From contig JBAQNJ010000001.1 in the NCBI GenBank assembly GCA_049303675.1, positions 821,443 through 885,442 of the forward strand: a stretch of 64,000 nucleotides of DNA. Reading direction: 5' to 3'. Under the pieces are notes generated by a model. The model ran no database searches and was not told where the DNA came from. It saw nothing but the letters and a program-made list of their open reading frames with translations. The translations under genes were made by a program, and so were the position numbers. Source of the DNA: Microgenomates group bacterium. GTDB lineage: Bacteria; Patescibacteriota; Microgenomatia; UBA12405. Shown in pieces: positions 4,300-22,692 of this stretch. Each line of letters begins with the position of its first letter. The first letter of the stretch is position 1.

Positions 4300-4968
4300 T
4301 TAGTGATAGACAATTACCACCTCACCCCGCGAATCACCTCCAAACTCACTTTCCACTGACTCAAACATTTTGGTCATCTCCCTCACTACTCTCACTTCAC
4401 ATTTTGACCCCTCAATTTCCTTAATTATTTTCACCGATTCTTCAGTTCTATTACCTGCCTCAAAAAACATTTTAACTCCCTCAAAACTTTTATATTTTTC
4501 TATCAATTTTTTCTTATCATTTTCTTTTTTAGGTAAAAAACCCAAAAAACAAAACCGCTGGATTGGCAATCCCGACAACACCGCAGCGTTAATAACCGCC
4601 GACATTCCCCCAATTGCAGTATATTTTAACCCCAACTCTTGGCATTTTTTGACTAGTAACCAGCCTGGATCAGAGATCAGGGGAGTCCCAGCATCAGTCA
4701 CCAATCCCACTTCCAATCCCTCCTTCAACATATTTATTACTTCTGGAATTTTCTGAGCTTCAACTTCATCATAAAATGACATTAGTTTTGGTTTATTGGC
4801 AATCTTTAAACTTTGCAGCAAAAATCCTGTCTTGCGAGTATCTTCACACAGCAAGATATCAATCTGTTCCAGCGTCTCAATCGCCCTCAAAGTAATGTCC
4901 TTCAGGTTTCCTATTGGTGTCGAAATTATATACAACATAATTTTTAATTTAAAATTTATCCTATACAA
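4300..4968 (-). CDS. rsmI: 16S rRNA (cytidine1402-2'-O)-methyltransferase RsmI (tetrapyrrole-methylase fold)
   Basis: 'MLYIISTPIGNLKDITLRAIE...' N-terminal motif; true start may be the internal Met at ~4938. Confidence 0.75.
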   Translation of the reverse strand: MYRINFKLKIMLYIISTPIGNLKDITLRAIETLEQIDILLCEDTRKTGFLLQSLKIANKPKLMSFYDEVEAQKIPEVINMLKEGLEVGLVTDAGTPLISDPGWLLVKKCQELGLKYTAIGGMSAVINAAVLSGLPIQRFCFLGFLPKKENDKKKLIEKYKSFEGVKMFFEAGNRTEESVKIIKEIEGSKCEVRVVREMTKMFESVESEFGGDSRGEVVIVYH

Positions 4969-9369: not shown

Positions 9370-9582
9370 ATGAACGAAAAATCACTCACTCCCATCGGTA
9401 TCATCTTATTATCTATCCTCTTCTTGCTGTTATCTTACGCCGGATATATTTCCTACCAGAGTATCGATTGGACAGTGCTCACCCGACTCGAGTCTCAGCC
9501 ACTAGTCCTACCAACTCCAGTTTCTTCACCCTCGGCAGTTGCTTTATCTCCCACTCCCTCCTTAACGCCAACGACAAAGTAG
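9370..9582 (+). CDS. small membrane protein with Pro/Thr/Ser-rich tail
   Basis: ORF with one TM helix; overlaps the convergent GIY-YIG gene at its 3' end. Confidence 0.3.
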   Translation: MNEKSLTPIGIILLSILFLLLSYAGYISYQSIDWTVLTRLESQPLVLPTPVSSPSAVALSPTPSLTPTTK

Positions 9583-9739
9583 CTACTTTTTCCACATAAA
9601 TCAATTCAAAAGATTTAAAGGCTCTCACATACTTGGACCCTTTGCCTGATTGATGTTTTAATATCCTCTTTTCCACGTCACTAGTTTGGCCGGTATATAG
9701 GGTATTTTTATCTGTTCTTAGAATATATACAAAATACAT
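9479..9739 (-). CDS. GIY-YIG nuclease family protein (UPF0213/YhbQ-like)
   Basis: 'FYVYILRTDKNTLYTGQTSDVEKRILKHQSGKGSKY' GIY-YIG motif. Confidence 0.75.
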   Translation of the reverse strand: MYFVYILRTDKNTLYTGQTSDVEKRILKHQSGKGSKYVRAFKSFELIYVEKVATLSLALRREWEIKQLPRVKKLELVGLVAETRVG

Positions 9740-9740
9740 A

Positions 9741-11264
9741 TTAATAATTTGGCAAACTCGGCACTGGCAAGCTCCCCCAATGTGCCATTAAGTAAGGAAA
9801 AGCTACTTCATTGTATATAAATATCCGATAAATTAGATATCCAAAAAACAACCACCAGATATATCTTACTAGCCCTACTTTCGGCCACCTCAGTCTCATC
9901 CCCAAAATCACTATAAACACAAAAAATATATTTCGATAATGGCCAATGCTCGGTACCAAATTTAGAGCCTCTCTTCCCCAGTAATAAGAGCTCGAAAAAG
10001 GAACTAGGAAAAAAGCGATCCCTTTTGCCCAGTTCGGTTTTTGCATAATTTCCCAGATAAATATTCCACTACACGCAGCCAAAAAGGGGATTGACGACAT
10101 CAAATACCATGGATAGTTTGGACTAGGAACCAACAATATTGTCAATAAATGAGCTGCCAGTGGCAAGGTAATAAACAGCACTTTCTTTACCCTTATTCTT
10201 AAAGAAATAATAAAAAAAGAAATCCATCCCCATATCCACCATCCATCAACCGGAAAATTCTTCAGTTTGAGAGCTTCCAATTGGGTCACCATTTTAATAG
10301 CTCCAAAATAACCTCGATGACTGTTGGTAGCAAAAATAGCCACAAACAAATCTTTTTGCAGCCACAAACCCCAACTGATATAAATCAGAATAGGTACGGC
10401 CACCGCCGTCAAAAATATAAAGATGTTTTTGTAAGGGAGTTTATACACTCCCATCAATATTACCAATCCACCCAAAAAACCGATTGCCGGCTCTTTGGTC
10501 AACACTGCCATTCCCCCAATTATTCCCGCCACTATTAGTGTGGCAGTTTCGTAAGCCATACTTTTTCTCTTTTCATATCCCTCAATCGACAAATACACAA
10601 AAATCAAACTCATCAATATCAGTGGCGATACCGCGTTTTCCAAATAAGCCGTTCTCGTGGCCAAGATATAGGTAGGCACGGTTGAGTAGACAATCAGTGC
10701 TATTAAGGGAACCCAAGGATTCCCGTATAACATTAATAATAGTATATACAATAAGCCACCAGTAATAACTGCCATAACTATGGCTGATTTTCTAAAATCA
10801 GCCGGTCTCACTGCCTCCACTGTCTCAACATTATCAGGCATGCCCCATTCATATATCATTCCCCCAATTGGCGGATGATCAAAAAATGGAGCCACCATCA
10901 ATATTTGCTCCTTACCTTTTAAGTAATCGAGCTCTACTACCCCTGTCAATGGTTTTCTGTCTTGTAAAAATTTATTTAAGTCAACATTATCTATCGAGAA
11001 TCCTCCCACTTCCCCTCGAATTGATCCAAACAATTTATTGCCATATTCCCCCGAGTTTAGCGACCAAGCCATTGGCAGACCAGTCTTTTTGAGACTTATT
11101 GCCTGCCAAATATAGTTGTATTCATCAAGGTTGGGCAGAGGATATGTCTCATAATTAAAATATCTCAAAACCAAGCTATGTTTGGATACTAAAATAGCCA
11201 AAAAAATACTCAAAACAAAAAAAATATACCCCCGATATTTCAACCACATACCCAATATTATCAA
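9741..11264 (-). CDS. GT-C fold membrane glycosyltransferase (ArnT/PMT-like, GT39/83)
   Basis: ~12 predicted TM helices; first periplasmic loop carries 'LDEYNY' (DE motif). Confidence 0.5.
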   Translation of the reverse strand: MIILGMWLKYRGYIFFVLSIFLAILVSKHSLVLRYFNYETYPLPNLDEYNYIWQAISLKKTGLPMAWSLNSGEYGNKLFGSIRGEVGGFSIDNVDLNKFLQDRKPLTGVVELDYLKGKEQILMVAPFFDHPPIGGMIYEWGMPDNVETVEAVRPADFRKSAIVMAVITGGLLYILLLMLYGNPWVPLIALIVYSTVPTYILATRTAYLENAVSPLILMSLIFVYLSIEGYEKRKSMAYETATLIVAGIIGGMAVLTKEPAIGFLGGLVILMGVYKLPYKNIFIFLTAVAVPILIYISWGLWLQKDLFVAIFATNSHRGYFGAIKMVTQLEALKLKNFPVDGWWIWGWISFFIISLRIRVKKVLFITLPLAAHLLTILLVPSPNYPWYLMSSIPFLAACSGIFIWEIMQKPNWAKGIAFFLVPFSSSYYWGREALNLVPSIGHYRNIFFVFIVILGMRLRWPKVGLVRYIWWLFFGYLIYRIFIYNEVAFPYLMAHWGSLPVPSLPNY

Positions 11265-11674: not shown

Positions 11675-11785
11675 ATTATCAGTAATTATATCTTATAATG
11701 TTATAAAGTCAACAACAAACTAAGAAATAAATTTTAAAACCAAATATAACCTGTCCTAAGGACTTATTTTAAAATTTTTCTTAAG

Positions 11786-11856
11786 TTACCCTGCATGGAT
11801 TCGAACCACAATAAACAGCTCCAAAGGCTGTTGTCCTACCATTAGACGACAGGGTA
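11786..11856 (-). tRNA. tRNA-Gln (anticodon TTG)
   Basis: rc: TACCCTGTCGTCTAATGGTAGGACAACAGC-CTTTGGA-GCTGT...GGTTCGAATCCATGCAGGGTAA; U1:A72 as in many tRNA-Gln. Confidence 0.7.
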
Positions 11857-11860
11857 AAGG

Positions 11861-11942
11861 TGCCGACGAGAGGACTTGAACCTCCACACCTTGCGGCATA
11901 CGCACCTCAAGCGTACGTGTATACCAATTTCACCACGTCGGC
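11861..11942 (-). tRNA. tRNA-Leu (anticodon GAG)
   Basis: rc: GCCGACGTGGTGAAATTGGTATACACGTACGC-TTGAGGT-GCGTA + long variable arm + GGAGGTTCAAGTCCTCTCGTCGGCA. Confidence 0.8.
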
Positions 11943-11964
11943 AGATTGTTAAAAGAGCTCTATA

Positions 11965-12186
11965 TTATACATCCTTTCTCTCTCTACTTATCACCACCAA
12001 GTCACCTTCGCTAAGTTGGCCAGAGATGACACCTTTACCTCTCTCCATTTGAGCAAGGTCTGTTTTTTCAAATCTTTTTACAAGTGGTAACGGATCGCCG
12101 ACATTTGTATAACCTAGACTATATAAATAATCTCTCAAGGAAAATTTTCCGATACAATTATAGATAATTTTTGAATTTTCTATCAT
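11965..12186 (-). CDS. small hypothetical protein (~73 aa); paralog of 12341..12568
   Basis: ORF 11965..12279 truncated to the internal Met because its N-terminus is a translation of tRNA-Val; C-terminus '...GDLVVISRERKDV' is shared with the neighbouring paralog. Confidence 0.4.
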   Translation of the reverse strand: MIENSKIIYNCIGKFSLRDYLYSLGYTNVGDPLPLVKRFEKTDLAQMERGKGVISGQLSEGDLVVISRERKDV

Positions 12187-12188
12187 AG

Positions 12189-12261
12189 TGGCCGCTGAGG
12201 GACTCGAACCCCCGACCACCCCGATGTAAACGGGATGCTCTACCAACTGAGCTAAGCAGCC
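12189..12261 (-). tRNA. tRNA-Val (anticodon TAC)
   Basis: rc: GGCTGCTTAGCTCAGTTGGTAGAGCATCCCG-TTTACAT-CGGGG...GGGGGTTCGAGTCCCTCAGCGGCCA. Confidence 0.8.
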
Positions 12262-12340
12262 AAAGTGTGAAGTTGCCAACTGTGGGGTTTATCCCCAGTC
12301 CGAATGCTTTCGGACAGCTAAGCAGCCATGCTGCTGTATT

Positions 12341-12568
12341 TTACCAATCTTTATGTTCTCTGACTATTACCACCTGTCCTGCCTCAACGTGTTCAGGATA
12401 ATCAATTTTCTCTCTTCTCAAACCTGTAGCCCGCAATACATATGCCTCACCACTTTTAACATCCATAACTCCTACTCTCACAGAAAAATCCCCCAAACAC
12501 ACATCCAAAATTGCATCACACAAGCTTGATACCTTCATCTCTACGGCATTTGTTACACCCTTAATCAT
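12341..12568 (-). CDS. small hypothetical protein (75 aa); paralog of 11965..12186
   Basis: ORF; C-terminus '...AGQVVIVREHKDW' and ~60% nucleotide identity over the last ~40 nt with the neighbouring paralog. Confidence 0.4.
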   Translation of the reverse strand: MIKGVTNAVEMKVSSLCDAILDVCLGDFSVRVGVMDVKSGEAYVLRATGLRREKIDYPEHVEAGQVVIVREHKDW

Positions 12569-12571
12569 CTG

Positions 12572-12595
12572 AGCGAGAGACGGGACTCGAACCCG
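12572..12595 (-). pseudogene. tRNA-Gly 3' fragment (T-arm plus 3' acceptor), exact duplicate of the 3' end of tRNA-Gly(GCC) at 12866..12939
   Basis: rc 'CGGGTTCGAGTCCCGTCTCTCGCTC' identical to the 3' 25 nt of the intact gene; upstream sequence does not fold into D or anticodon arms. Confidence 0.55.
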
Positions 12596-12610
12596 TTGGC
12601 AGCCTGTCGC

Positions 12611-12862
12611 CTAAGGCGACTGCTCAACCAATTTAACTTTTAACCACTCACGACCCTTACCAGACTTTAAAGACTTTTCTCTTCTTAAGGCATCTATTCT
12701 CGTTGGCATATTTTCACCATAAATTAAATCAAATGGAAAAGTTAGTGAAGTATATTTGGATTTACCAGAATTATGTTCCGACATTCTTCTTTCAATATCG
12801 TTTGTCTGGCCTACATATAGTCGATTGTTTACCCGACTTTTAAGTACGTATACAGTAAACAT
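12611..12862 (-). CDS. GIY-YIG nuclease family protein (UPF0213/YhbQ-like)
   Basis: 'FTVYVLKSRVNNRLYVGQTNDIERRMSEHNSGKSKY' motif; paralog of 9479..9739. Confidence 0.75.
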   Translation of the reverse strand: MFTVYVLKSRVNNRLYVGQTNDIERRMSEHNSGKSKYTSLTFPFDLIYGENMPTRIDALRREKSLKSGKGREWLKVKLVEQSP

Positions 12863-12865
12863 TCT

Positions 12866-12939
12866 GAGCGAGAGACGGGACTCGAACCCGCAGCCTTCTC
12901 CTTGGCAAGGAGATGCTCAACCAATTGAGCTACTCTCGC
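12866..12939 (-). tRNA. tRNA-Gly (anticodon GCC)
   Basis: rc: GCGAGAGTAGCTCAATTGGTTGAGCATCTCC-TTGCCAA-GGAGA AGGCTGCGGGTTCGAGTCCCGTCTCTCGCT. Confidence 0.85.
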
Positions 12940-12943
12940 AATT

Positions 12944-12974
12944 CAGTTAACAGATTTCAGTTAACCGTTTACAG
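12944..12974. repeat. GTTAAC-core repeat, left flank of four-helix-bundle gene: CAGTTAACAG-ATTT-CAGTTAACCGTTTACAG
   Basis: read directly. Confidence 0.65.
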
Positions 12975-13344
12975 TTTTTAGCGACCTTATCAAACCGTAG
13001 AGTATTTTACCAGTTAAATCAGCCTGTGTTAATACCGGATTTACATCAAGTTTCGGATACAATTTATTAATAATTTTACATATTGCGACCACCTCAACCA
13101 GTGACTTTCTCGATATGCCCAAAAACTTAATGAAATCTCTTCTGCTGTCAGAAGCACTACCTTCAGCAATATTAATTGCCACCGATGTTGACGCTCTCCT
13201 GATCTGATCACCTAGACCATGCACTTCAAAACTAGGCAACAAAGTATGTAAAAGATATGAAAACTCTACTAACCTTACGGACTCTTCCCACACTTTTAAC
13301 TTTTCAAAATTCTGCATTTTCCTCTGTATACTGTTAACTGCCAT
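12961..13344 (-). CDS. four-helix-bundle protein (TIGR02436 / '23S rRNA intervening-sequence protein' family)
   Basis: 'LKVWEESVRL...LP..E.HGLGDQIRRASTSVAINIAEGS...FLGISRKSLVEV' family signature. Confidence 0.75.
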   Translation of the reverse strand: MAVNSIQRKMQNFEKLKVWEESVRLVEFSYLLHTLLPSFEVHGLGDQIRRASTSVAINIAEGSASDSRRDFIKFLGISRKSLVEVVAICKIINKLYPKLDVNPVLTQADLTGKILYGLIRSLKTVNG

Positions 13345-13359
13345 CCGTTAACTGTTTAG
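13331..13359. repeat. GTTAAC-core repeat, right flank of four-helix-bundle gene: CTGTTAACTG-CCATC-CGTTAACTGTTTAG (direct orientation relative to the left flank)
   Basis: read directly. Confidence 0.65.
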
Positions 13360-13432
13360 TGCCGAAAGTTGGACTCGAACCAACATCCCAGGTTTTTCAG
13401 ACCAGTGCCGTGACCATCTTGGCTATTTCGGC
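13360..13432 (-). tRNA. tRNA-Phe (anticodon GAA), copy 1
   Basis: rc: GCCGAAATAGCCAAGATGGTCACGGCACTGGT-CTGAAAA-ACCTG GGAT GTTGGTTCGAGTCCAACTTTCGGCA; anticodon stem has one U.U mismatch; 73/73 identical to the copy at 39464..39536. Confidence 0.65.
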
Positions 13433-13513
13433 TTAAGAAGTATTTGTATTATACAAAATAAAAATATTTTTGTTCTACTGTATTCTATCAACAGTTAACT
13501 GTTCGCTGTCGAG

Positions 13514-13595
13514 TGCCGTTGAGAGGACTTGAACCTCCACGCCTTGCGGCATACGCTTCTGAGACGTACGTGTATACCAATTTCACCACAACGGC
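13514..13595 (-). tRNA. tRNA-Leu (anticodon CAG)
   Basis: rc: GCCGTTGTGGTGAAATTGGTATACACGTACGT-CTCAGAA-GCGTA + long variable arm + GGAGGTTCAAGTCCTCTCAACGGCA. Confidence 0.8.
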
Positions 13596-13643
13596 AAATC
13601 AAGGTATTATCTCACGAAACAAATTCAGTTTTTATCTTTACAA

Positions 13644-14186
13644 CTATTTAATAACATCCTCAAACAGTTCTTTAGCGCTAAACACTAATGGCAATTTTAA
13701 AACCTCTTCACGAGTAAACCATTTTGCCTCAATTACTTTACTCTCAACATCATCTCTAGTTTCAGTTGTTTCAGATATAGTTTCAAAAAAGAAAATCACT
13801 CCATGATAATTATATTTTGGTGCAATTGCCTCTCTGAAGACTAAGAAACTTAGTTCCTTAGCCACAATTCCAGTTTCTTCCAATATCTCTCTTTTAGCCG
13901 CAATCTCCAGAGTTTCTCCAAATTCAACCTTACCTCCTGGTATTATCCAATAATCCTTGCCTCCTTCTAATGTTTCCCTAACTAACAAGAACTTGTTTTT
14001 ATTTCTTACCAACACGCCAACTATTACTTTTGGTTTCCTTTTTATCATTTCTAACTGAATCTTAGGCGGAATCGGCCGACAACTACACTCTCGGTTGTGA
14101 TCCGTATGCCACTGAATTCTCTCGTTCAAACTTGCCTTTTTAGGCATCTTGTTCTTCTGGTGCCACTCTTTATTTATCTTCGCCAT
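13644..14186 (-). CDS. NUDIX hydrolase with N-terminal Cys/His-containing extension
   Basis: Nudix box 'GGKVEFGETLEIAAKREILEETG'. Confidence 0.8.
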   Translation of the reverse strand: MAKINKEWHQKNKMPKKASLNERIQWHTDHNRECSCRPIPPKIQLEMIKRKPKVIVGVLVRNKNKFLLVRETLEGGKDYWIIPGGKVEFGETLEIAAKREILEETGIVAKELSFLVFREAIAPKYNYHGVIFFFETISETTETRDDVESKVIEAKWFTREEVLKLPLVFSAKELFEDVIK

Positions 14187-14218
14187 TATTTATTTTATAC
14201 CACTCTCTTTATCTCATC

Positions 14219-14292
14219 TGGAGCGGGATGGGGGAGTCGAACCCCCCATATCAGTTTGGAAAACTGAAGTTATACCGATTAACTAATCCCGC
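14219..14292 (-). tRNA. tRNA-Gly (anticodon TCC), CCA encoded
   Basis: rc: GCGGGATTAGTTAATCGGTATAACTTCAGT-TTTCCAA-ACTGA...GGGGGGTTCGACTCCCCCATCCCGCTCCA. Confidence 0.8.
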
Positions 14293-14382
14293 AACGTACA
14301 AATTACTTCATAATTTTACGTTGCAGAAACGTTAATTTGCAAAGCAAATTTTACGTTTCGCAAAATAAATTAAGGTGCAATC

Positions 14383-14442
14383 TAAGTCGGGCTATGCCTA
14401 GACTAAGTTCATAAGACATAGTCGGGCTACGCCTCGACAAAG
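14383..14442. repeat. two tandem ~24-bp direct repeats (TAAGTCGGGCTA[T/C]GCCT[A/C]GAC[T/A]AAG) between tRNA-Gly and tRNA-Pro
   Basis: read directly: 14383..14407 and 14419..14442. Confidence 0.6.
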
Positions 14443-14458
14443 CTCGTAGAGAGCGAAG

Positions 14459-14532
14459 TCGGGGATACTGGATTCGAACCAGCAACCTCACGGTCCCAAA
14501 CCGTGCGCGCTAGCCAATTGCGCCAATCCCCG
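14459..14532 (-). tRNA. tRNA-Pro (anticodon TGG)
   Basis: rc: CGGGGATTGGCGCAATTGGCTAGCGCGCACGG-TTTGGGA-CCGTG...GCTGGTTCGAATCCAGTATCCCCGA. Confidence 0.8.
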
Positions 14533-14557
14533 TTGCTCGTGTATTTTACACGAATTG

Positions 14558-14642
14558 TGCCGCCAGAGGGGATCGAACCCCCACGCTTGTTGAGAGCACA
14601 AGATTTTAAGTCTTGCGTGTATACCAATTTCACCATGGCGGC
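14558..14642 (-). tRNA. tRNA-Leu (anticodon TAA)
   Basis: rc: GCCGCCATGGTGAAATTGGTATACACGCAAGA-CTTAAAA-TCTTG + long variable arm + GGGGGTTCGATCCCCTCTGGCGGCA. Confidence 0.8.
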
Positions 14643-14691
14643 TAATTGTAGAATGTATTATATAATCAAAAGAACAATTTCCCAACAACCA

Positions 14692-15807
14692 ATGAGCAAA
14701 CCCCAATTCTTTAAAACCACCACCGGACTTCATATACCACTGCCAGTATTTTTCCCCGACGCTACCCGAGCCGTTCTCAAAACCCTCGACAGTGCCGATA
14801 TTGAGTCCACCAAAACTCAAGGAATACTAGTCAATACTTTTCATCTCAACAATTTCCCCGGAGGATCGGTTATAAAAGAACACAAAGGTGTCCGCAACTT
14901 TATGTCATGGAGTGGGGGAGTTATCTCCGATTCCGGTGGCTTCCAAGTTATGTCACTTGCCAAAACCCACGATGGCACCAAAAACCCAGTTTCTGACAAA
15001 GGAGTCAACTTTAAAATCCCCGGAACCAGCAAGAAAATTCTTTTTACCCCCAAAATGAGTATCGATTTTCAAATGCTTCTCAAAACTGATATGGTAGTAG
15101 TGCTTGACGATTTTACCGATCTTCAGGCCAACGAGGCCAAGCAACGAGAAACTGTCGAACGAACCGTTACTTGGGCGCGAGTTTGTAAAAAAATATTTGA
15201 CAAAAATTGCTCTGATCGCAAAATATCACCTGAATCTCGACCCTACTTACTCGGGGTTGTTCAGGGTGGTCACAACTTAGAATTACGTCGAGAATGTACC
15301 CAAAGATTGGTCGAAATTGGCTTTGATGGACTGGGCTATGGCGGTTGGCCCATGACCGACGATGGCGAATTTAATTTTGAAATACCCCGAGTTATTGGCG
15401 AAAATGTCCCCGATGATTATTTGCTCTATGGTCTAGGAGTAGGCAAACCACATGAAATAGTCCACATGGTCAAAATGGGCTGGAATGTCTTTGACTGTGT
15501 CCTACCCACTCGTGATGCCCGCCACAAACGACTCTATGTTTATGATGCCAAAACAATTGATGACATCGACTTGTCTACCGATAAATTTTATAAATATTTT
15601 GTCCCCGACAAGGAAATTCATTATCATGACCGCAATCCTGTCAGTACCGCCTGTGATTGTCTACTTTGCACTCGTTACGATCGTTCTTATCTTCGCCACC
15701 TATTTCAAATCGGCGATATGACAGCGGGCCGCCTCGCCACTATTCACAATCTACGTTTTTATTCTATTCTCATGGAGAAGCTACAACCAATTTATGAAAA
15801 AATTTAA
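14692..15807 (+). CDS. tgt: queuine tRNA-ribosyltransferase (tRNA-guanine transglycosylase)
   Basis: start trimmed to 'MSKPQFF' (ORF 14503.. overlaps three tRNAs); 'LYGLGVGKPHEIVHMVKMGWNVFDCVLPTRDARHKRLYV' and zinc site 'CDCLLCTRYDRSYLRHLF' (CxCxxC...H). Confidence 0.85.
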   Translation: MSKPQFFKTTTGLHIPLPVFFPDATRAVLKTLDSADIESTKTQGILVNTFHLNNFPGGSVIKEHKGVRNFMSWSGGVISDSGGFQVMSLAKTHDGTKNPVSDKGVNFKIPGTSKKILFTPKMSIDFQMLLKTDMVVVLDDFTDLQANEAKQRETVERTVTWARVCKKIFDKNCSDRKISPESRPYLLGVVQGGHNLELRRECTQRLVEIGFDGLGYGGWPMTDDGEFNFEIPRVIGENVPDDYLLYGLGVGKPHEIVHMVKMGWNVFDCVLPTRDARHKRLYVYDAKTIDDIDLSTDKFYKYFVPDKEIHYHDRNPVSTACDCLLCTRYDRSYLRHLFQIGDMTAGRLATIHNLRFYSILMEKLQPIYEKI

Positions 15808-16825
15808 TGCCATAAATTTTGGCTGTCGCGTCAATGCCGCCGAAACCAATCAATTATCCCAACAACTAATTGATCAAGGTTATACTTTTGACGATCAAAA
15901 TCCCGACACTATTATTGTCAACACCTGCGCCATAACCAAGAAAGGTGAATACGAATCAATTTATAATATAAAAAAAATATTAAAAGACAACCCAAACATT
16001 AAAATAATTGCCACTGGTTGTGCTAACCTAGAAAAATTAAAAGACCTCAAAAACGTTACCATCCTCAAAAATGTCGACAAGGACAAAATCCAATCCGTCT
16101 ACACTCCCCAAATCAGCGACAAATTTTCTCGCACCCATCGTTATATGCTCAAAGTACAATCCGGCTGTAGTGTCAATTGTACTTTTTGTATCGTCCCCAC
16201 CCGTCGCACCACCCTCAACTCTCTGTCTATCTCAGATGCTGTGAAAACAGTTAATACCGTCGTAGAAAACGGCTATACCGAAGTTATTATCACTGGTGTC
16301 AATCTGGCTCAATATCTCCCCAGCCTCGCCGATTTGGTAGAAGCACTGCTCACCCAAACCAAAATAAAATTAATTTCATTTGGTTCAGTCCCACTGCTTT
16401 GTATCAACGATAAATTCATTGATCTGTTAACTGTAAACCGTTCACGGTTAACTGACTTTCTCCACATTCCTCTTCAATCAGGATCAAATAAAATCTTAAA
16501 ATTAATGCACCGCCCATATCATAAAGAAAAAATACTCAATACCTTTAAATTACTAACTTCCCCCCTTGTTAAAGGGGGGACCGAGGGGGGATTGAAATTC
16601 GGGACCGACATCATCGTCGGCTTCCCCACCGAAACTGACTCCGACTTTCAAGAAACTTATAATTTATGCCAATCTTTAGGTTTTTCTAAAATTCATGTTT
16701 TCCGCTATTCTCCCCGCCCCGACACACCTGCTCGAGAATTGTTCCTCAAAAGTGCTAAAATCCCTAAAACCGTCATTTTAGAAAGGTCAAAACTACTCCG
16801 TCAACTAACACCAACAAATATATGA
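15794..16825 (+). CDS. radical-SAM methylthiotransferase (MiaB/RimO family), N-terminal MTTase domain plus radical SAM core
   Basis: 'IIVNTCAITKKGE' MTTase N-domain; 'CSVNCTFC' CxxxCxxC; no TRAM domain within this ORF; contains an in-frame GTTAAC-repeat copy and a GC hairpin. Confidence 0.75.
   Translation: MKKFNAINFGCRVNAAETNQLSQQLIDQGYTFDDQNPDTIIVNTCAITKKGEYESIYNIKKILKDNPNIKIIATGCANLEKLKDLKNVTILKNVDKDKIQSVYTPQISDKFSRTHRYMLKVQSGCSVNCTFCIVPTRRTTLNSLSISDAVKTVNTVVENGYTEVIITGVNLAQYLPSLADLVEALLTQTKIKLISFGSVPLLCINDKFIDLLTVNRSRLTDFLHIPLQSGSNKILKLMHRPYHKEKILNTFKLLTSPLVKGGTEGGLKFGTDIIVGFPTETDSDFQETYNLCQSLGFSKIHVFRYSPRPDTPARELFLKSAKIPKTVILERSKLLRQLTPTNI
16434..16467. repeat. GTTAAC-core repeat copy inside the methylthiotransferase coding sequence (CTGTTAACTGTAAACCGTTCACGGTTAACTGAC), in frame
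   Basis: read directly; encodes '…LLTVNRSRLTDF…'. Confidence 0.6.
16561..16579. repeat. GC hairpin with TGTTAA loop (CCCCCT-TGTTAA-AGGGGGG) inside the methylthiotransferase coding sequence
   Basis: read directly; encodes 'PLVKGG'. Confidence 0.55.
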
Positions 16826-19667: not shown

Positions 19668-19739
19668 TAAACAGTTGACAGATTACAGTTTACAGAAAAA
19701 ATCTCTGTTAACTGACAACTGTAGACTGTAAACTGATTA
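19668..19739. repeat. cluster of CAGTT[A/G]AC / ACAGTTTACAG / CTGTAAACTG words between the two tRNA-Arg genes (GTTAAC-core repeat family)
   Basis: read directly: 'aaacagttgacagattacagtttacagaaaaaatctctgttaactgacaactgtagactgtaaactg'. Confidence 0.6.
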
Positions 19740-22097: not shown

Positions 22098-22234
22098 AAT
22101 CTACCACTTCAACGCCTGTTCGTAAAGGTTGTAAGTACTTTAATGACATATTCACTTATACACCAATCATCCGCCAAAGGCGGATTGTATTTTGTGGCAA
22201 AATTTTCCCTAGTCATATATTTAATCCCTCTAAA

Positions 22235-22275: not shown

Positions 22276-22692
22276 ATGAAACTTGTTGTCCCCGAAGCGG
22301 TCAATAGCAAAAGAATGTGTGTAGGATATCTTGAGCAATTGACACACATGTCCAGAAAAAACAGGAACAACCCCACAGCGGCAGAGGATAAAATTTGGCA
22401 AGAAGTTTTACGGAAAAGACAAACCGGCTACCTGTTTCTCAGACAAAAGCCAATTTATAGATTCATTACTGATTTCTATTGTGCTGAATTAAAACTCGCT
22501 ATAGAAATAGATGGCAGTTCACACAACAACAAAAAATGCACAGACAAACTTCGTGACCAATTTCTTAAACAAATAGGTATAGACACAATCAGATTTACAA
22601 ATAACGAGATAATCTACAATATAAATGATGTTAAAAATAAACTAATTGCAGTCTTACCCCCTCGTGTTAAAGAGGGGGGAGGGGGAGATTAA
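22276..22692 (+). CDS. DUF559 endonuclease-domain protein (Vsr/restriction-endonuclease-like fold)
   Basis: 'RQKPIYRFITDFYCAELKLAIEIDGSSHN...DKLRDQFLKQIGIDTIRFTNNEI' matches the DUF559 signature. Confidence 0.75.
   Translation: MKLVVPEAVNSKRMCVGYLEQLTHMSRKNRNNPTAAEDKIWQEVLRKRQTGYLFLRQKPIYRFITDFYCAELKLAIEIDGSSHNNKKCTDKLRDQFLKQIGIDTIRFTNNEIIYNINDVKNKLIAVLPPRVKEGGGGD
22657..22678. repeat. GC hairpin with GTGTTAAA loop (CCCCCTC-GTGTTAAA-GAGGGGG) inside the 3' end of the DUF559 gene
   Basis: read directly; encodes 'PPRVKEGGGG'. Confidence 0.6.

Follow-up and report, generated by a model that had tools for sequence, protein, structure and literature searches.

Within a 64,000-nucleotide stretch of a Microgenomates group bacterium genome (contig JBAQNJ010000001.1; the whole stretch is called the window below), a compact array of tRNA genes harbours a gene for an 83-amino-acid GIY-YIG nuclease that lies between an intact tRNA-Gly(GCC) and a partial copy of that same tRNA, the copy having a perfect palindrome in the place of its anticodon arm. 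The anatomy of the array, the association of the GIY-YIG gene with tRNA, and the presence of the inserts in some genomes and their absence from others are matters of observation. We consider it very probable that the GIY-YIG unit is a tRNA-associated mobile or selfish unit and not a host gene. For the locus at large, we lean, by no great distance, towards a nine-tRNA operon that is conserved in Candidatus Shapirobacteria and whose junctions small genes of several kinds have independently come to occupy; this more guarded judgement applies to the complete account, in which the operon, the GIY-YIG element, a cassette resembling an intervening sequence (IVS), two small open reading frames (ORFs A and B) and a NUDIX gene are explained together.

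The nuclease gene and its tRNA flanks

Read along the minus strand, the intact tRNA-Gly(GCC) is followed by the four nucleotides CAGA, the ATG of the GIY-YIG gene, its reading frame and the partial copy of that tRNA. A copy of the D loop and D stem (12621-12638; 18 nt, 89% identical to the tRNA) supplies the final nine codons of the gene, and the TAG stop codon lies within the loop of a perfect 15-bp palindrome, GTCGCCTTAGGCGAC (12606-12620), that stands exactly in place of anticodon-arm positions 27-43; beyond the palindrome come the variable region and then a T arm and 3' acceptor strand identical to those of the intact tRNA-Gly(GCC). An exact 28-nt repeat of the tRNA 3' end (12568-12595 and 12863-12890) bounds an interval of ~270 nt, and the gene with its tRNA flanks makes up a unit of ~0.3 kb. 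The GIY-YIG frame is the sole ORF between the repeats, and no tyrosine or serine recombinase domain was found in any ORF of the array. The palindrome has two matches in the 64 kb of the window, against 0.04 expected.

Relatives were found by a scan with the protein of tgt, the gene next to the array, followed by tRNA scans and ORF lists; they belong to Candidatus Shapirobacteria (Microgenomates, Candidate Phyla Radiation [CPR]), and three of their loci, L001, L003 and L005, encode tgt proteins that are 85%, 80% and 77% identical to that of the window. The junction between tRNA-Gly(GCC) and tRNA-Val is filled by a GIY-YIG gene in the window and in L001 and is empty in L003 and L005. In L001, the gene follows tRNA-Gly(GCC) with zero gap, and its end lies in a partial tRNA copy in which another hairpin, CCCCGC-TAA-GCGGGG, takes the same position and the 32 nt of the tRNA 3' end are identical; next comes a second, truncated copy of the GIY-YIG ORF, and two 77-nt tandem chimeric pieces of the tRNA-Gly 5' part, with the same hairpin, lie upstream. 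The two GIY-YIG genes are only ~41% identical, compared with 85% for tgt and 95% for tRNA-Gly(GCC) between the same genomes, and must therefore have been acquired independently or be evolving very fast; to L003 and L005, the identity of tRNA-Gly(GCC) is 72-76%. The junction between tRNA-Arg(TCG) and tRNA-Lys differs as well: in L001, it holds a GIY-YIG ORF flanked by hairpin-bearing partial copies of tRNA-Lys, and in the window, it is 87 nt long and empty.

The arrangement recurs beyond these genomes. We found 37 homologs of the GIY-YIG protein, with C-terminal tails (…AEQSA, …GRAGPPEAD) that are translations of a tRNA D arm and the palindrome. A metagenome scan with the homolog alignment returned 80 loci, which form 64 clusters at 95% nucleotide identity; these are the best tblastn matches to one subfamily, and the proportions that follow describe that subfamily only. 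In 57 of the 64 clusters, the GIY-YIG ORF abuts a same-strand tRNA at a distance of at most 110 nt (31 upstream, 24 downstream, 2 on both sides), and 17 isoacceptors are represented. As a control within the same loci, a same-strand tRNA lies within 60 nt of 60 of the 90 GIY-YIG ORFs but of only 8 of the 303 other ORFs of 60-130 amino acids. Two layouts occur: in type I, that of the window, an intact tRNA is followed by the ORF and then by a partial tRNA (~15-26, palindrome, 44-76), and in type II, a partial tRNA (1-26, palindrome, 44-5x) precedes the ORF and the intact tRNA. Exact repeats of the adjacent tRNA, 10-54 nt in length, flank most of the GIY-YIG ORFs, and in 18 loci, the stop codon of the ORF is the tRNA's own U8-A9-G10, the overlap being exactly 10 nt. 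Several of the elements are located at the tRNA-Ile or tRNA-Ala of an rRNA operon, and tandem partial tRNA copies occur in L001, L034 and L084.

A GC-rich palindrome is found at most 260 nt from the ORF in 66 of the 80 loci. Its consensus is KYCGCC-TNA-GGCGRM, with a fixed core, CGCC/GGCG, and two outer pairs that are either GT/AC or TC/GA; the palindrome in the window can be written GTCGCC-TNA-GGCGAC. We mapped the replaced interval where the junctions align to the neighbouring intact tRNA, and the commonest class is exactly positions 27-43 (20 cases at both junctions and 12 more at one); in the contexts of tRNA-Pro, tRNA-Asn and tRNA-Lys, the replacement is confined to the 5' strand of the anticodon stem. 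The stem is strictly Watson–Crick (112 and 106 of 124 at the variable pairs, without an excess of G-U), and the loops come in reverse-complement pairs (TGA 26 and TCA 13; TAA 12 and TTA 10), so that a palindrome acting at the level of DNA fits better than an RNA hairpin. The idea that the loop could be a suppressor anticodon (TTA) was discarded: the loop sequence is free to vary, and only 1-3 nt stay unpaired in the preferred structure.

A few further copies were noticed in passing. The other palindrome of the window, TCCGCCAAAGGCGGA at 22170-22184 on the plus strand, is intergenic and lies ~90 nt upstream of a 138-amino-acid ORF (22276-22692) that by eye has a DUF559/Vsr-like endonuclease domain. 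In L014, where the spacer tRNA-Ile of the rRNA operon carries a GIY-YIG element, the palindrome found in the 16S gene replaces, by eye, a native short helix. A palindrome-substituted copy of tRNA-Val in L028 (311-381) was miscalled tRNA-Ser(TGA) by ARAGORN, and in L089 (1827-1946), two ~56-nt tandem repeats, each with the first 12 nt of tRNA-Gln and another palindrome (CCCTAGGGGACTAGGG), lie directly upstream of an intact tRNA-Gln, with no nuclease gene visible on the short contig.

The protein matches PF01541 with 59.7 bits against a cut-off of 22.6 and has all the invariant residues of the GIY-YIG family alignments (Y5, Y16, G18, R26, H30, E62 and K66). The AlphaFold2 model (predicted local distance difference test [pLDDT] score 86.7) contains a single GIY-YIG domain and a short, low-confidence tail that comes from the tRNA copy. 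Among solved structures, the best sequence matches are to the UPF0213 proteins 1ZG2 and 1YWL (E=2.4e-6 and 1.1e-5), and in a Foldseek search the closest fold is again 1ZG2, followed by the nuclease domain of Slx1 (template-modelling score 0.66-0.68) and the catalytic domain of I-TevI (1LN0). Sequence and modelled fold thus both place the protein in the UPF0213/Slx1 branch and not in the Seg/I-TevI branch; the match to TIGR01453, at 24.8 bits, is far under the cut-off of 56.05. YhbQ, YazA and Slx1 have been treated as one family (PMC7017083). A role in defence was also considered and set aside, PADLOC returning weak partial GIY-YIG matches and a NUDIX match to the candidate family PDC-S07, without the architecture of a system.

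The tRNA array and its other inserts

ARAGORN and Rfam, the latter at gathering thresholds, agree on nine minus-strand tRNA genes in 11785-14642, a span of 2.86 kb (Table 1), with the transcription order Leu(TAA), Pro(TGG), Gly(TCC), Leu(CAG), Phe(GAA), Gly(GCC), Val(TAC), Leu(GAG) and Gln(TTG). A sequence-only reading of this DNA had spoken of a ten-gene array, but its own list also names nine, and neither a permissive Rfam scan (E up to 10) nor ARAGORN found a tenth between 11300 and 14900. Much else in that reading was borne out: the nine tRNA species and their common strand were recovered by both programs; five small protein genes (NUDIX, PF05635 four-helix-bundle, GIY-YIG, ORF B and ORF A), all on the minus strand, occupy the spacers; the mechanical ORF list indeed contains spurious ORFs that are translations of tRNAs; and the spacers hold both partial tRNA duplicates (28-nt and 18-nt copies of tRNA-Gly(GCC) and a 13-nt copy of tRNA-Val) and palindromic sequence, in the form of 31-nt inverted repeats at the four-helix-bundle ORF and structured segments at 12262-12345 and 14293-14440.

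Table 1. Features of the tRNA array and its spacers, listed in the direction of transcription (window coordinates)
Feature	Position	Strand	Basis
Promoter-like site TTGGGA-17-TATAAT	14657..14685	-	consensus match only, 10/12 positions
tRNA-Leu(TAA), first array gene	14557..14642	-	ARAGORN; Rfam 58.7 bits
tRNA-Pro(TGG)	14458..14532	-	ARAGORN, Rfam
Pro/Gly(TCC) spacer, without ORF, highly structured	14293..14457	-	repeats, RNA fold
tRNA-Gly(TCC)	14219..14292	-	ARAGORN, Rfam, sequence
NUDIX hydrolase ORF, 180 aa	13644..14186	-	PF00293 E=7.5e-23, 81.4 bits
tRNA-Leu(CAG)	13513..13595	-	ARAGORN, Rfam
Solo perfect palindrome AACAGTTAACTGTT, motif of the cassette repeats, upstream of tRNA-Phe	13490..13503	.	
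tRNA-Phe(GAA)	13359..13432	-	ARAGORN, Rfam
IVS-like cassette, 411 nt, between tRNA-Phe and tRNA-Gly(GCC)	12944..13354	-	inverted repeats, fold
Four-helix-bundle ORF, 127 aa	12961-13344	-	PF05635 E=2.9e-23; TIGR02436 E=1.1e-24
tRNA-Gly(GCC), intact copy	12866..12939	-	ARAGORN, Rfam; discriminator at 12867
GIY-YIG nuclease ORF, 83 aa	12611..12862	-	PF01541 E=3.5e-16
Partial tRNA-Gly copy	12569..12638	-	direct repeats, sequence, palindrome search
ORF B, 75 aa	12341..12568	-	paralog of ORF A
Three-hairpin spacer; 13 nt of the tRNA-Val 5' end copied at 12316-12328	12262..12340	-	direct repeat, fold
tRNA-Val(TAC)	12188..12261	-	ARAGORN, Rfam; discriminator at 12189
ORF A, 73 aa	11965..12186	-	homologs at same junction in L089, L090
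tRNA-Leu(GAG)	11859..11942	-	ARAGORN, Rfam
tRNA-Gln(TTG), last array gene	11785..11856	-	ARAGORN, Rfam

The nine genes are probably an operon read from one promoter next to tgt. The promoter-like site lies 15 nt upstream of tRNA-Leu(TAA), within the 50-bp divergent gap to tgt, which is divergent from the array and has its likely start at 14692, and no convincing same-strand terminators were found inside the array; a point against a single transcript is that the consensus scan also finds promoter-like sites inside it. The Pro/Gly(TCC) spacer contains two pairs of direct repeats (14385-14413 and 14420-14448; 14312-14329 and 14347-14364), and the RNA fold of 14293-14440 reaches -47.3 kcal/mol (z=-5.3). 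Rfam finds no rRNA in the 64-kb window. GC skew is strongly negative in every 2-kb bin of 1-64000, at about -0.05 to -0.38 and mostly ~-0.2, and persists though the genes of the window occupy both strands.

The same tRNAs recur in the relatives, but with other contents between them. L003 has the nine genes in the same order, packed in 1.14 kb without any of the five window ORFs; its spacers are 4-54 nt long, except for one of 284 nt, at the Pro/Gly(TCC) junction, that holds an unrelated 72-amino-acid ORF. L005 has the nine with the Leu(TAA)/Pro pair inverted, and its inserts, of 1.7-1.8 kb and encoding large membrane proteins, are at the Leu(CAG)/Phe and Phe/Gly(GCC) junctions; in L001, inserts of 1.2-4.7 kb are found at three array junctions. 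The four-helix-bundle protein, NUDIX, ORF A, ORF B and a 113-amino-acid ORF downstream of the array have no counterpart in L001-L006. What is conserved, we conclude, is the array and not what its spacers contain. The comparison with homologous arrays that the sequence-only reading had proposed therefore shows spacer ORFs that differ between relatives, and not the strictly conserved content that would have spoken for a fixed operon. Its view of the array as a site of accretion agrees with the variable junctions and fits less well with ORF A, which is conserved, and with the NUDIX gene, which has no mobility signature; similarly, 'selfish mini-genes' is an apt description of the GIY-YIG and four-helix-bundle genes, which carry signatures of mobile elements, but the large, membrane glycosyltransferase-like genes at the relatives' junctions mean that the hot spot is not specific to mini-genes. 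The layout inside the GIY-YIG element had not been recognised in that reading.

Multi-pass membrane proteins, by eye similar to ArnT/PMT-type glycosyltransferases, recur in or next to the array (L001 2436-3635 and 4291-5847; L005 5447-6973 and 7356-9107; window 9741-11264) and occupy different junctions in different relatives; only the 507-amino-acid protein of the window has a detectable ortholog, in L003 (53% identity). Two nucleotides past the stop codon of this 507-amino-acid gene starts a second GIY-YIG gene (9479-9739, minus strand; 86 amino acids, 47-48% identical to the array GIY-YIG), whose C-terminal coding region resembles the D arm of tRNA-Gln (TTGGTAGGAC). It has orthologs in L003 and L090, the latter beginning 17 nt after tRNA-Gln, and the 113-amino-acid ORF and the 507-amino-acid gene of the window hence appear to be wedged in between. 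In L003, a tRNA-Arg(TCT) with C at position 33 (9427-9501) was miscalled tRNA-Pyl(CTA) by ARAGORN.

The second insert with the marks of mobility is the cassette between tRNA-Phe and tRNA-Gly(GCC). Its ORF scores well above the cut-offs of both PF05635 (82.6 bits; cut-off 33.8) and TIGR02436 (86.7 bits; cut-off 24), and its start and stop codons lie inside the two arms of a 31-nt terminal inverted repeat (12944-12974 and 13324-13354) that is GTTAAC-rich and 84% complementary; the terminal stem closes the whole ORF in the minimum free energy and centroid folds (z=-3.3). In L088, a homolog located between protein-coding genes, with no tRNA, also has inverted repeats on its two sides (30 nt, 87% complementary). 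The idea of a tRNA-specific family was dropped, the two homolog contigs examined having no tRNA; the L088 copy and the copies of the motif elsewhere indicate an inverted-repeat-bounded insertion that is not tied to tRNAs. To judge from its sequence, the 411-nt cassette appears to be of the same kind as the ORF-bearing intervening sequences of 23S rRNA, and its stem would be a substrate for RNase III in a polycistronic tRNA precursor. Outside the array, two places in the window have the CAGTTAAC motif of the cassette repeats. An ORF-less 72-nt stem-loop between tRNA-Arg(TCT) and tRNA-Arg(TCG) (19668-19739, plus strand; z=-3.96), at a junction that measures only 5 nt in L001, looks like an ORF-less relative of the cassette. 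At 16424-16454, two motifs of this type stand 21 nt apart inside a 343-amino-acid ORF (15794-16825) and encode ...KTVNTVVENG..., resembling the termini of the four-helix-bundle ORF (MAVNS..., ...KTVNG); they could be an in-frame palindrome insertion or a product of chance.

The remaining residents look different. The ATG of ORF A comes 2 nt after the discriminator of tRNA-Val (A, then CT, then ATG), and a profile search with ORFs A and B found homologs, P0044 and P0046, at the same Val(TAC)/Leu(GAG) junction of L090 and L089, where the start codon again stands 2 nt after the discriminator (A, then CT-ATG or CT-GTG). L003 keeps only the last ~12 nt of ORF A and the downstream spacer, which points to a deletion there. 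On these sequence grounds, ORF A is an older resident of the array and not an insertion, representing a small conserved family, and ORF B, with its ATG placed 3 nt past the discriminator in the partial copy of tRNA-Gly, is its local, lineage-specific duplicate. The sequence-only reading had already seen a paralog pair flanking tRNA-Val; the two are 31% identical and share their C-termini, a similarity that is weak (E=0.001 in a single comparison) but genuine. Both are unannotated. For ORF B, Pfam, NCBIfam and PADLOC gave no match, a word-based search returned its own record only, and a profile search, the ORF A family only, with no relative that carries an annotation; the AlphaFold2 model of ORF A (pLDDT 77) has no match in the PDB. 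The fold of the spacer segment 12262-12345 beside tRNA-Val has an energy of -25.6 kcal/mol (z=-2.5).

Among the nine tRNAs, only tRNA-Gly(TCC) has an encoded CCA, and since endonucleolytic 3' processing is expected of tRNAs without one, it is expected of the other eight. Such processing would leave leaders of 2-4 nt and, in the case of ORF A, release a nearly leaderless mRNA; no recognisable Shine-Dalgarno sequence was found in the tRNA-ORF gaps.

The NUDIX protein has an intact NUDIX box, GX5EX7REUXEEXGU (GKVEFGETLEIAAKREILEETGI in the translation), and reaches the cut-off of no NCBIfam equivalog. In L035, an unrelated contig, a 34%-identical homolog has tRNA-Gly(GCC) and a GIY-YIG element as neighbours; L001-L006 have none within 10 kb of tgt. 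The gene carries no mark of mobility and is ordinary cargo in our reading. Residues 1-50 form an N-terminal extension with a Cys/His-containing motif, WHTDHNRECSCRPIP, outside any Pfam model.

A possible mechanism and its rivals

The anatomy of the element is that of two tandem tRNA copies around an ORF, one of them disarmed by the palindrome and clipped on the side proximal to the ORF. For this, we tentatively suggest a nuclease-driven, homing-like element that uses the tRNA as portable homology, a mechanism that in its specifics we hold to be somewhat doubtful. The candidate nuclease would cut a gene for this tRNA that is still free of the element, at some point of the interval replaced by the palindrome, and an occupied locus would serve as template for the repair: one tRNA copy would pair with the D-arm side of the break, the other with its T-arm/acceptor side. 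Whatever the downstream sequence, repair would bring in the ORF together with the second copy of the tRNA; one working tRNA would always be regenerated, so the insertion would cost the host little. Whether the outcome is type I or type II would depend on which donor tRNA copy is intact. The palindrome-substituted copy, having no anticodon arm, may escape cutting, and if the remaining intact copy were cut again and again, this would account for the tandem partial copies of L001, L034 and L084. The palindrome itself could be an immunity module, a dimer recognition site or a structure-specific substrate. That the GIY-YIG gene, the duplicated tRNA and the palindrome make up an undescribed class of minimal autonomous mobile element of ~0.3 kb is a prediction that we regard as more doubtful still. 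If true, such elements would spread among tRNA genes, including those of rRNA operons, across the CPR and, going by the source annotations of the protein homologs, into other phyla too; they would do so by nuclease-triggered gene conversion, the tRNA serving as portable homology arm and the palindrome as a recognition or immunity module.

Several observations weigh against this picture. After UPF0213, the nearest folds are those of Slx1-type, structure-specific nucleases, and the 83-amino-acid protein has no separate DNA-binding domain, being a catalytic domain alone; the characterised GIY-YIG homing endonucleases have separate DNA-binding modules. The intact tRNA beside the element should stay cleavable unless recognition extends beyond the tRNA. 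Co-conversion of the flanking tRNA was tried as evidence for homing and proved uninformative: tRNA-Gly(TCC) diverges in the same pattern as tRNA-Gly(GCC), and phylogeny thus explains the pattern of the latter. L014 has the palindrome in both its 16S and its 23S rRNA gene (as GTCGCC-TNA-GGCGAC, at 1988-2002 and 4489-4503), and solo tandem copies are found too; the palindrome is therefore not simply an immunity scar. The gaps between tRNA and ATG vary across the GIY-YIG family from -1 to ~54 nt, so leaderless mRNA is not the rule in the family. Finally, the 80 loci sample the best matches of a single subfamily.

The observations can be read in other ways. One could regard the locus as a fixed functional operon, in which the spacer genes are host genes of tRNA or RNA metabolism, namely a nuclease, a Nudix RNA pyrophosphohydrolase-like enzyme and small RNA-binding proteins, that are co-expressed with the tRNAs and whose placement is selected. 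The same-strand, abutting placement does imply co-transcription, ORF A is kept at the same junction in three genomes, a NUDIX homolog adjoins tRNA-Gly(GCC) in the unrelated contig L035, and the second GIY-YIG gene (9479-9739) has its orthologs in L003 and L090 near the array end. However, the L003 array does without any of the five ORFs, L005 and L001 have other genes at other junctions, and the L001 GIY-YIG gene at the same tRNA is not only ~41% identical but also partly duplicated and truncated; moreover, the flanking tRNA repeats and terminal inverted repeats are signatures of insertion, and no NUDIX equivalog model reaches its cut-off. We therefore consider a fixed operon improbable. Still less credible, to our mind, is that the partial tRNA copies are attR-type scars of decayed integrase islands, with the GIY-YIG gene as leftover cargo. 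Integration into tRNA genes classically leaves a complete and a partial copy (PMC9897764), and a 28-nt repeat of a tRNA 3' end is what the window has; but the ~270 nt between the repeats hold the GIY-YIG ORF alone, the array has no recombinase, and the same tight arrangement, often with the ORF stop inside the tRNA, is found in 57 of 64 loci and on 17 isoacceptors. In type II, furthermore, it is the 5' part of the tRNA that is duplicated, which is not expected of integrase scars, and a conserved palindrome in the place of the anticodon arm is not a product of decay.

Two further explanations centre on the palindrome. The palindrome-substituted, tRNA-like sequence might be a functional unit at the level of RNA, an anticodon-less tRNA mimic that the tRNA duplication serves to supply, with mobility secondary, and act as a processing signal for RNase P and RNase Z or as a stabiliser or decoy for the nuclease mRNA. 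A hairpin indeed replaces a hairpin exactly at positions 27-43, with different sequences at the same position; L028 has a complete mimic that ARAGORN calls a tRNA; in the window and L001, ORF starts follow directly on the 3' end of a tRNA or mimic; and cleavage by RNase P would cut an ORF off from its stop codon if this is U8-A9-G10. Most copies, however, have no 5' acceptor strand or no T arm and are unable to fold as tRNA, and folding of the window copy yields the hairpin and the T arm but nothing else of significance (z=-1.4), which does not support a folded tRNA-like RNA for this copy; the strictly Watson–Crick stem without G-U bias, the loops in both orientations and the same palindrome in rRNA genes and as solo copies also speak for DNA, and a primarily RNA-level function seems to us unlikely. 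Alternatively, the palindrome could be a small repeat of the repetitive extragenic palindromic (REP) kind and the GIY-YIG protein its dedicated structure- or site-specific nuclease, in the manner of REP/RAYT pairs, tRNA genes being favoured landing sites through hairpins that resemble the palindrome. A perfect 15-bp palindrome with a central N would suit recognition by a homodimer, the nearest folds include Slx1-type structure-specific nucleases, and in 66 of 80 loci the ORF has the palindrome next to it, on one side or on both; the palindrome is further found in rRNA helices and as tandem solo copies. On the other hand, two copies in the 64-kb window do not make a high-copy repeat in this genome, the L001 hairpin has an entirely different sequence, it stays unexplained why the flank is always a copy of the adjacent tRNA, and we know of no GIY-YIG transposase or REP-associated GIY-YIG protein; we give this possibility little weight.

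Relation to known systems

If mobile in the way proposed, the GIY-YIG/tRNA/palindrome unit would rank with the smallest self-mobilising DNA elements that we know of, a bare nuclease domain that gains target range by using a cell's most conserved sequences for its homology arms. It would likewise account for the many short proteins annotated only as 'GIY-YIG nuclease family protein' and for many of the partial or odd tRNA calls in metagenome-assembled genomes, such as the false tRNA-Ser of L028. For annotation and the curation of tRNA sets, the rule is a simple one: a tRNA directly adjoins the nuclease ORF on one side, and part of that tRNA is repeated on the other. More generally, tRNA operons emerge as places of gene gain and loss in the small genomes of the CPR, and some of the small ORFs in such arrays may depend on tRNA processing for their expression.

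Many of the ingredients are already known: tRNA arrays, tRNA genes as targets of insertion, free-standing GIY-YIG homing genes and intervening sequences with PF05635 proteins. In full-text searches, from whose coverage most subscription journals fall outside, we found no description of a catalytic-domain-only GIY-YIG gene between a tRNA and its copy, of a palindrome that replaces the anticodon arm or of so broad an association with tRNAs. As a protein, the nuclease resembles UPF0213/YhbQ-YazA (COG2827) and eukaryotic Slx1 in consisting of a single small GIY-YIG (URI) domain. To our knowledge, the UPF0213 members of Escherichia coli and Bacillus subtilis are single-copy and not next to tRNAs, and neither flanking tRNA copies nor the palindrome is described for the family in the literature searched. 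With integrase-mediated islands in tRNA genes, the element shares the direct repeats of part of a tRNA at both ends; it differs in having no recombinase, in its size of ~0.3 kb as opposed to ~9-23 kb in published examples (PMC9897764), in that either the 5' or the 3' part of the tRNA may be duplicated, and in the conserved palindrome that takes the place of the anticodon arm in the partial copy.

The closest parallels to the cassette are the intervening sequences in the 23S rRNA of Leptospira and Coxiella ('S23p'), the latter 428 nt long, excised by RNase III and regarded as selfish (PMC4990558). A PF05635/TIGR02436 protein, a length of 411 versus 428 nt and terminal inverted repeats that form a stem closing the ORF are common to both, whereas the window cassette sits in a tRNA-tRNA spacer and not in helix 25 or 45 of 23S rRNA. 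For ORF A in three genomes, the GIY-YIG ORF and ORF B, which all start 2-4 nt after a discriminator, the analogy is with the tRNA punctuation of mitochondria, where mRNAs are released by the processing of tRNAs; here, the setting is a bacterial chromosome, only some of the ORFs abut a tRNA, and the processing is a supposition.

For the GIY-YIG element, finally, the nearest comparison is with SegB of phage T4. Both are GIY-YIG genes between tRNA genes and are absent from close relatives. SegB is much longer than 83 amino acids and has a separate DNA-binding region; it is a phage protein, whereas the window GIY-YIG is a catalytic domain only, encoded on a bacterial chromosome, and no duplicated or palindrome-substituted tRNA copy has been described for SegB. 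This homing endonuclease resides in a tRNA cluster, cuts at a 27-bp site that includes an 11-bp motif of the tRNA T loop, is missing from T2L, RB1 and RB3, and spreads both itself and the neighbouring tRNA genes (PMC2330249). By analogy, SegB may be taken as the precedent for a catalytic-domain GIY-YIG gene that would spread by way of tRNA genes.

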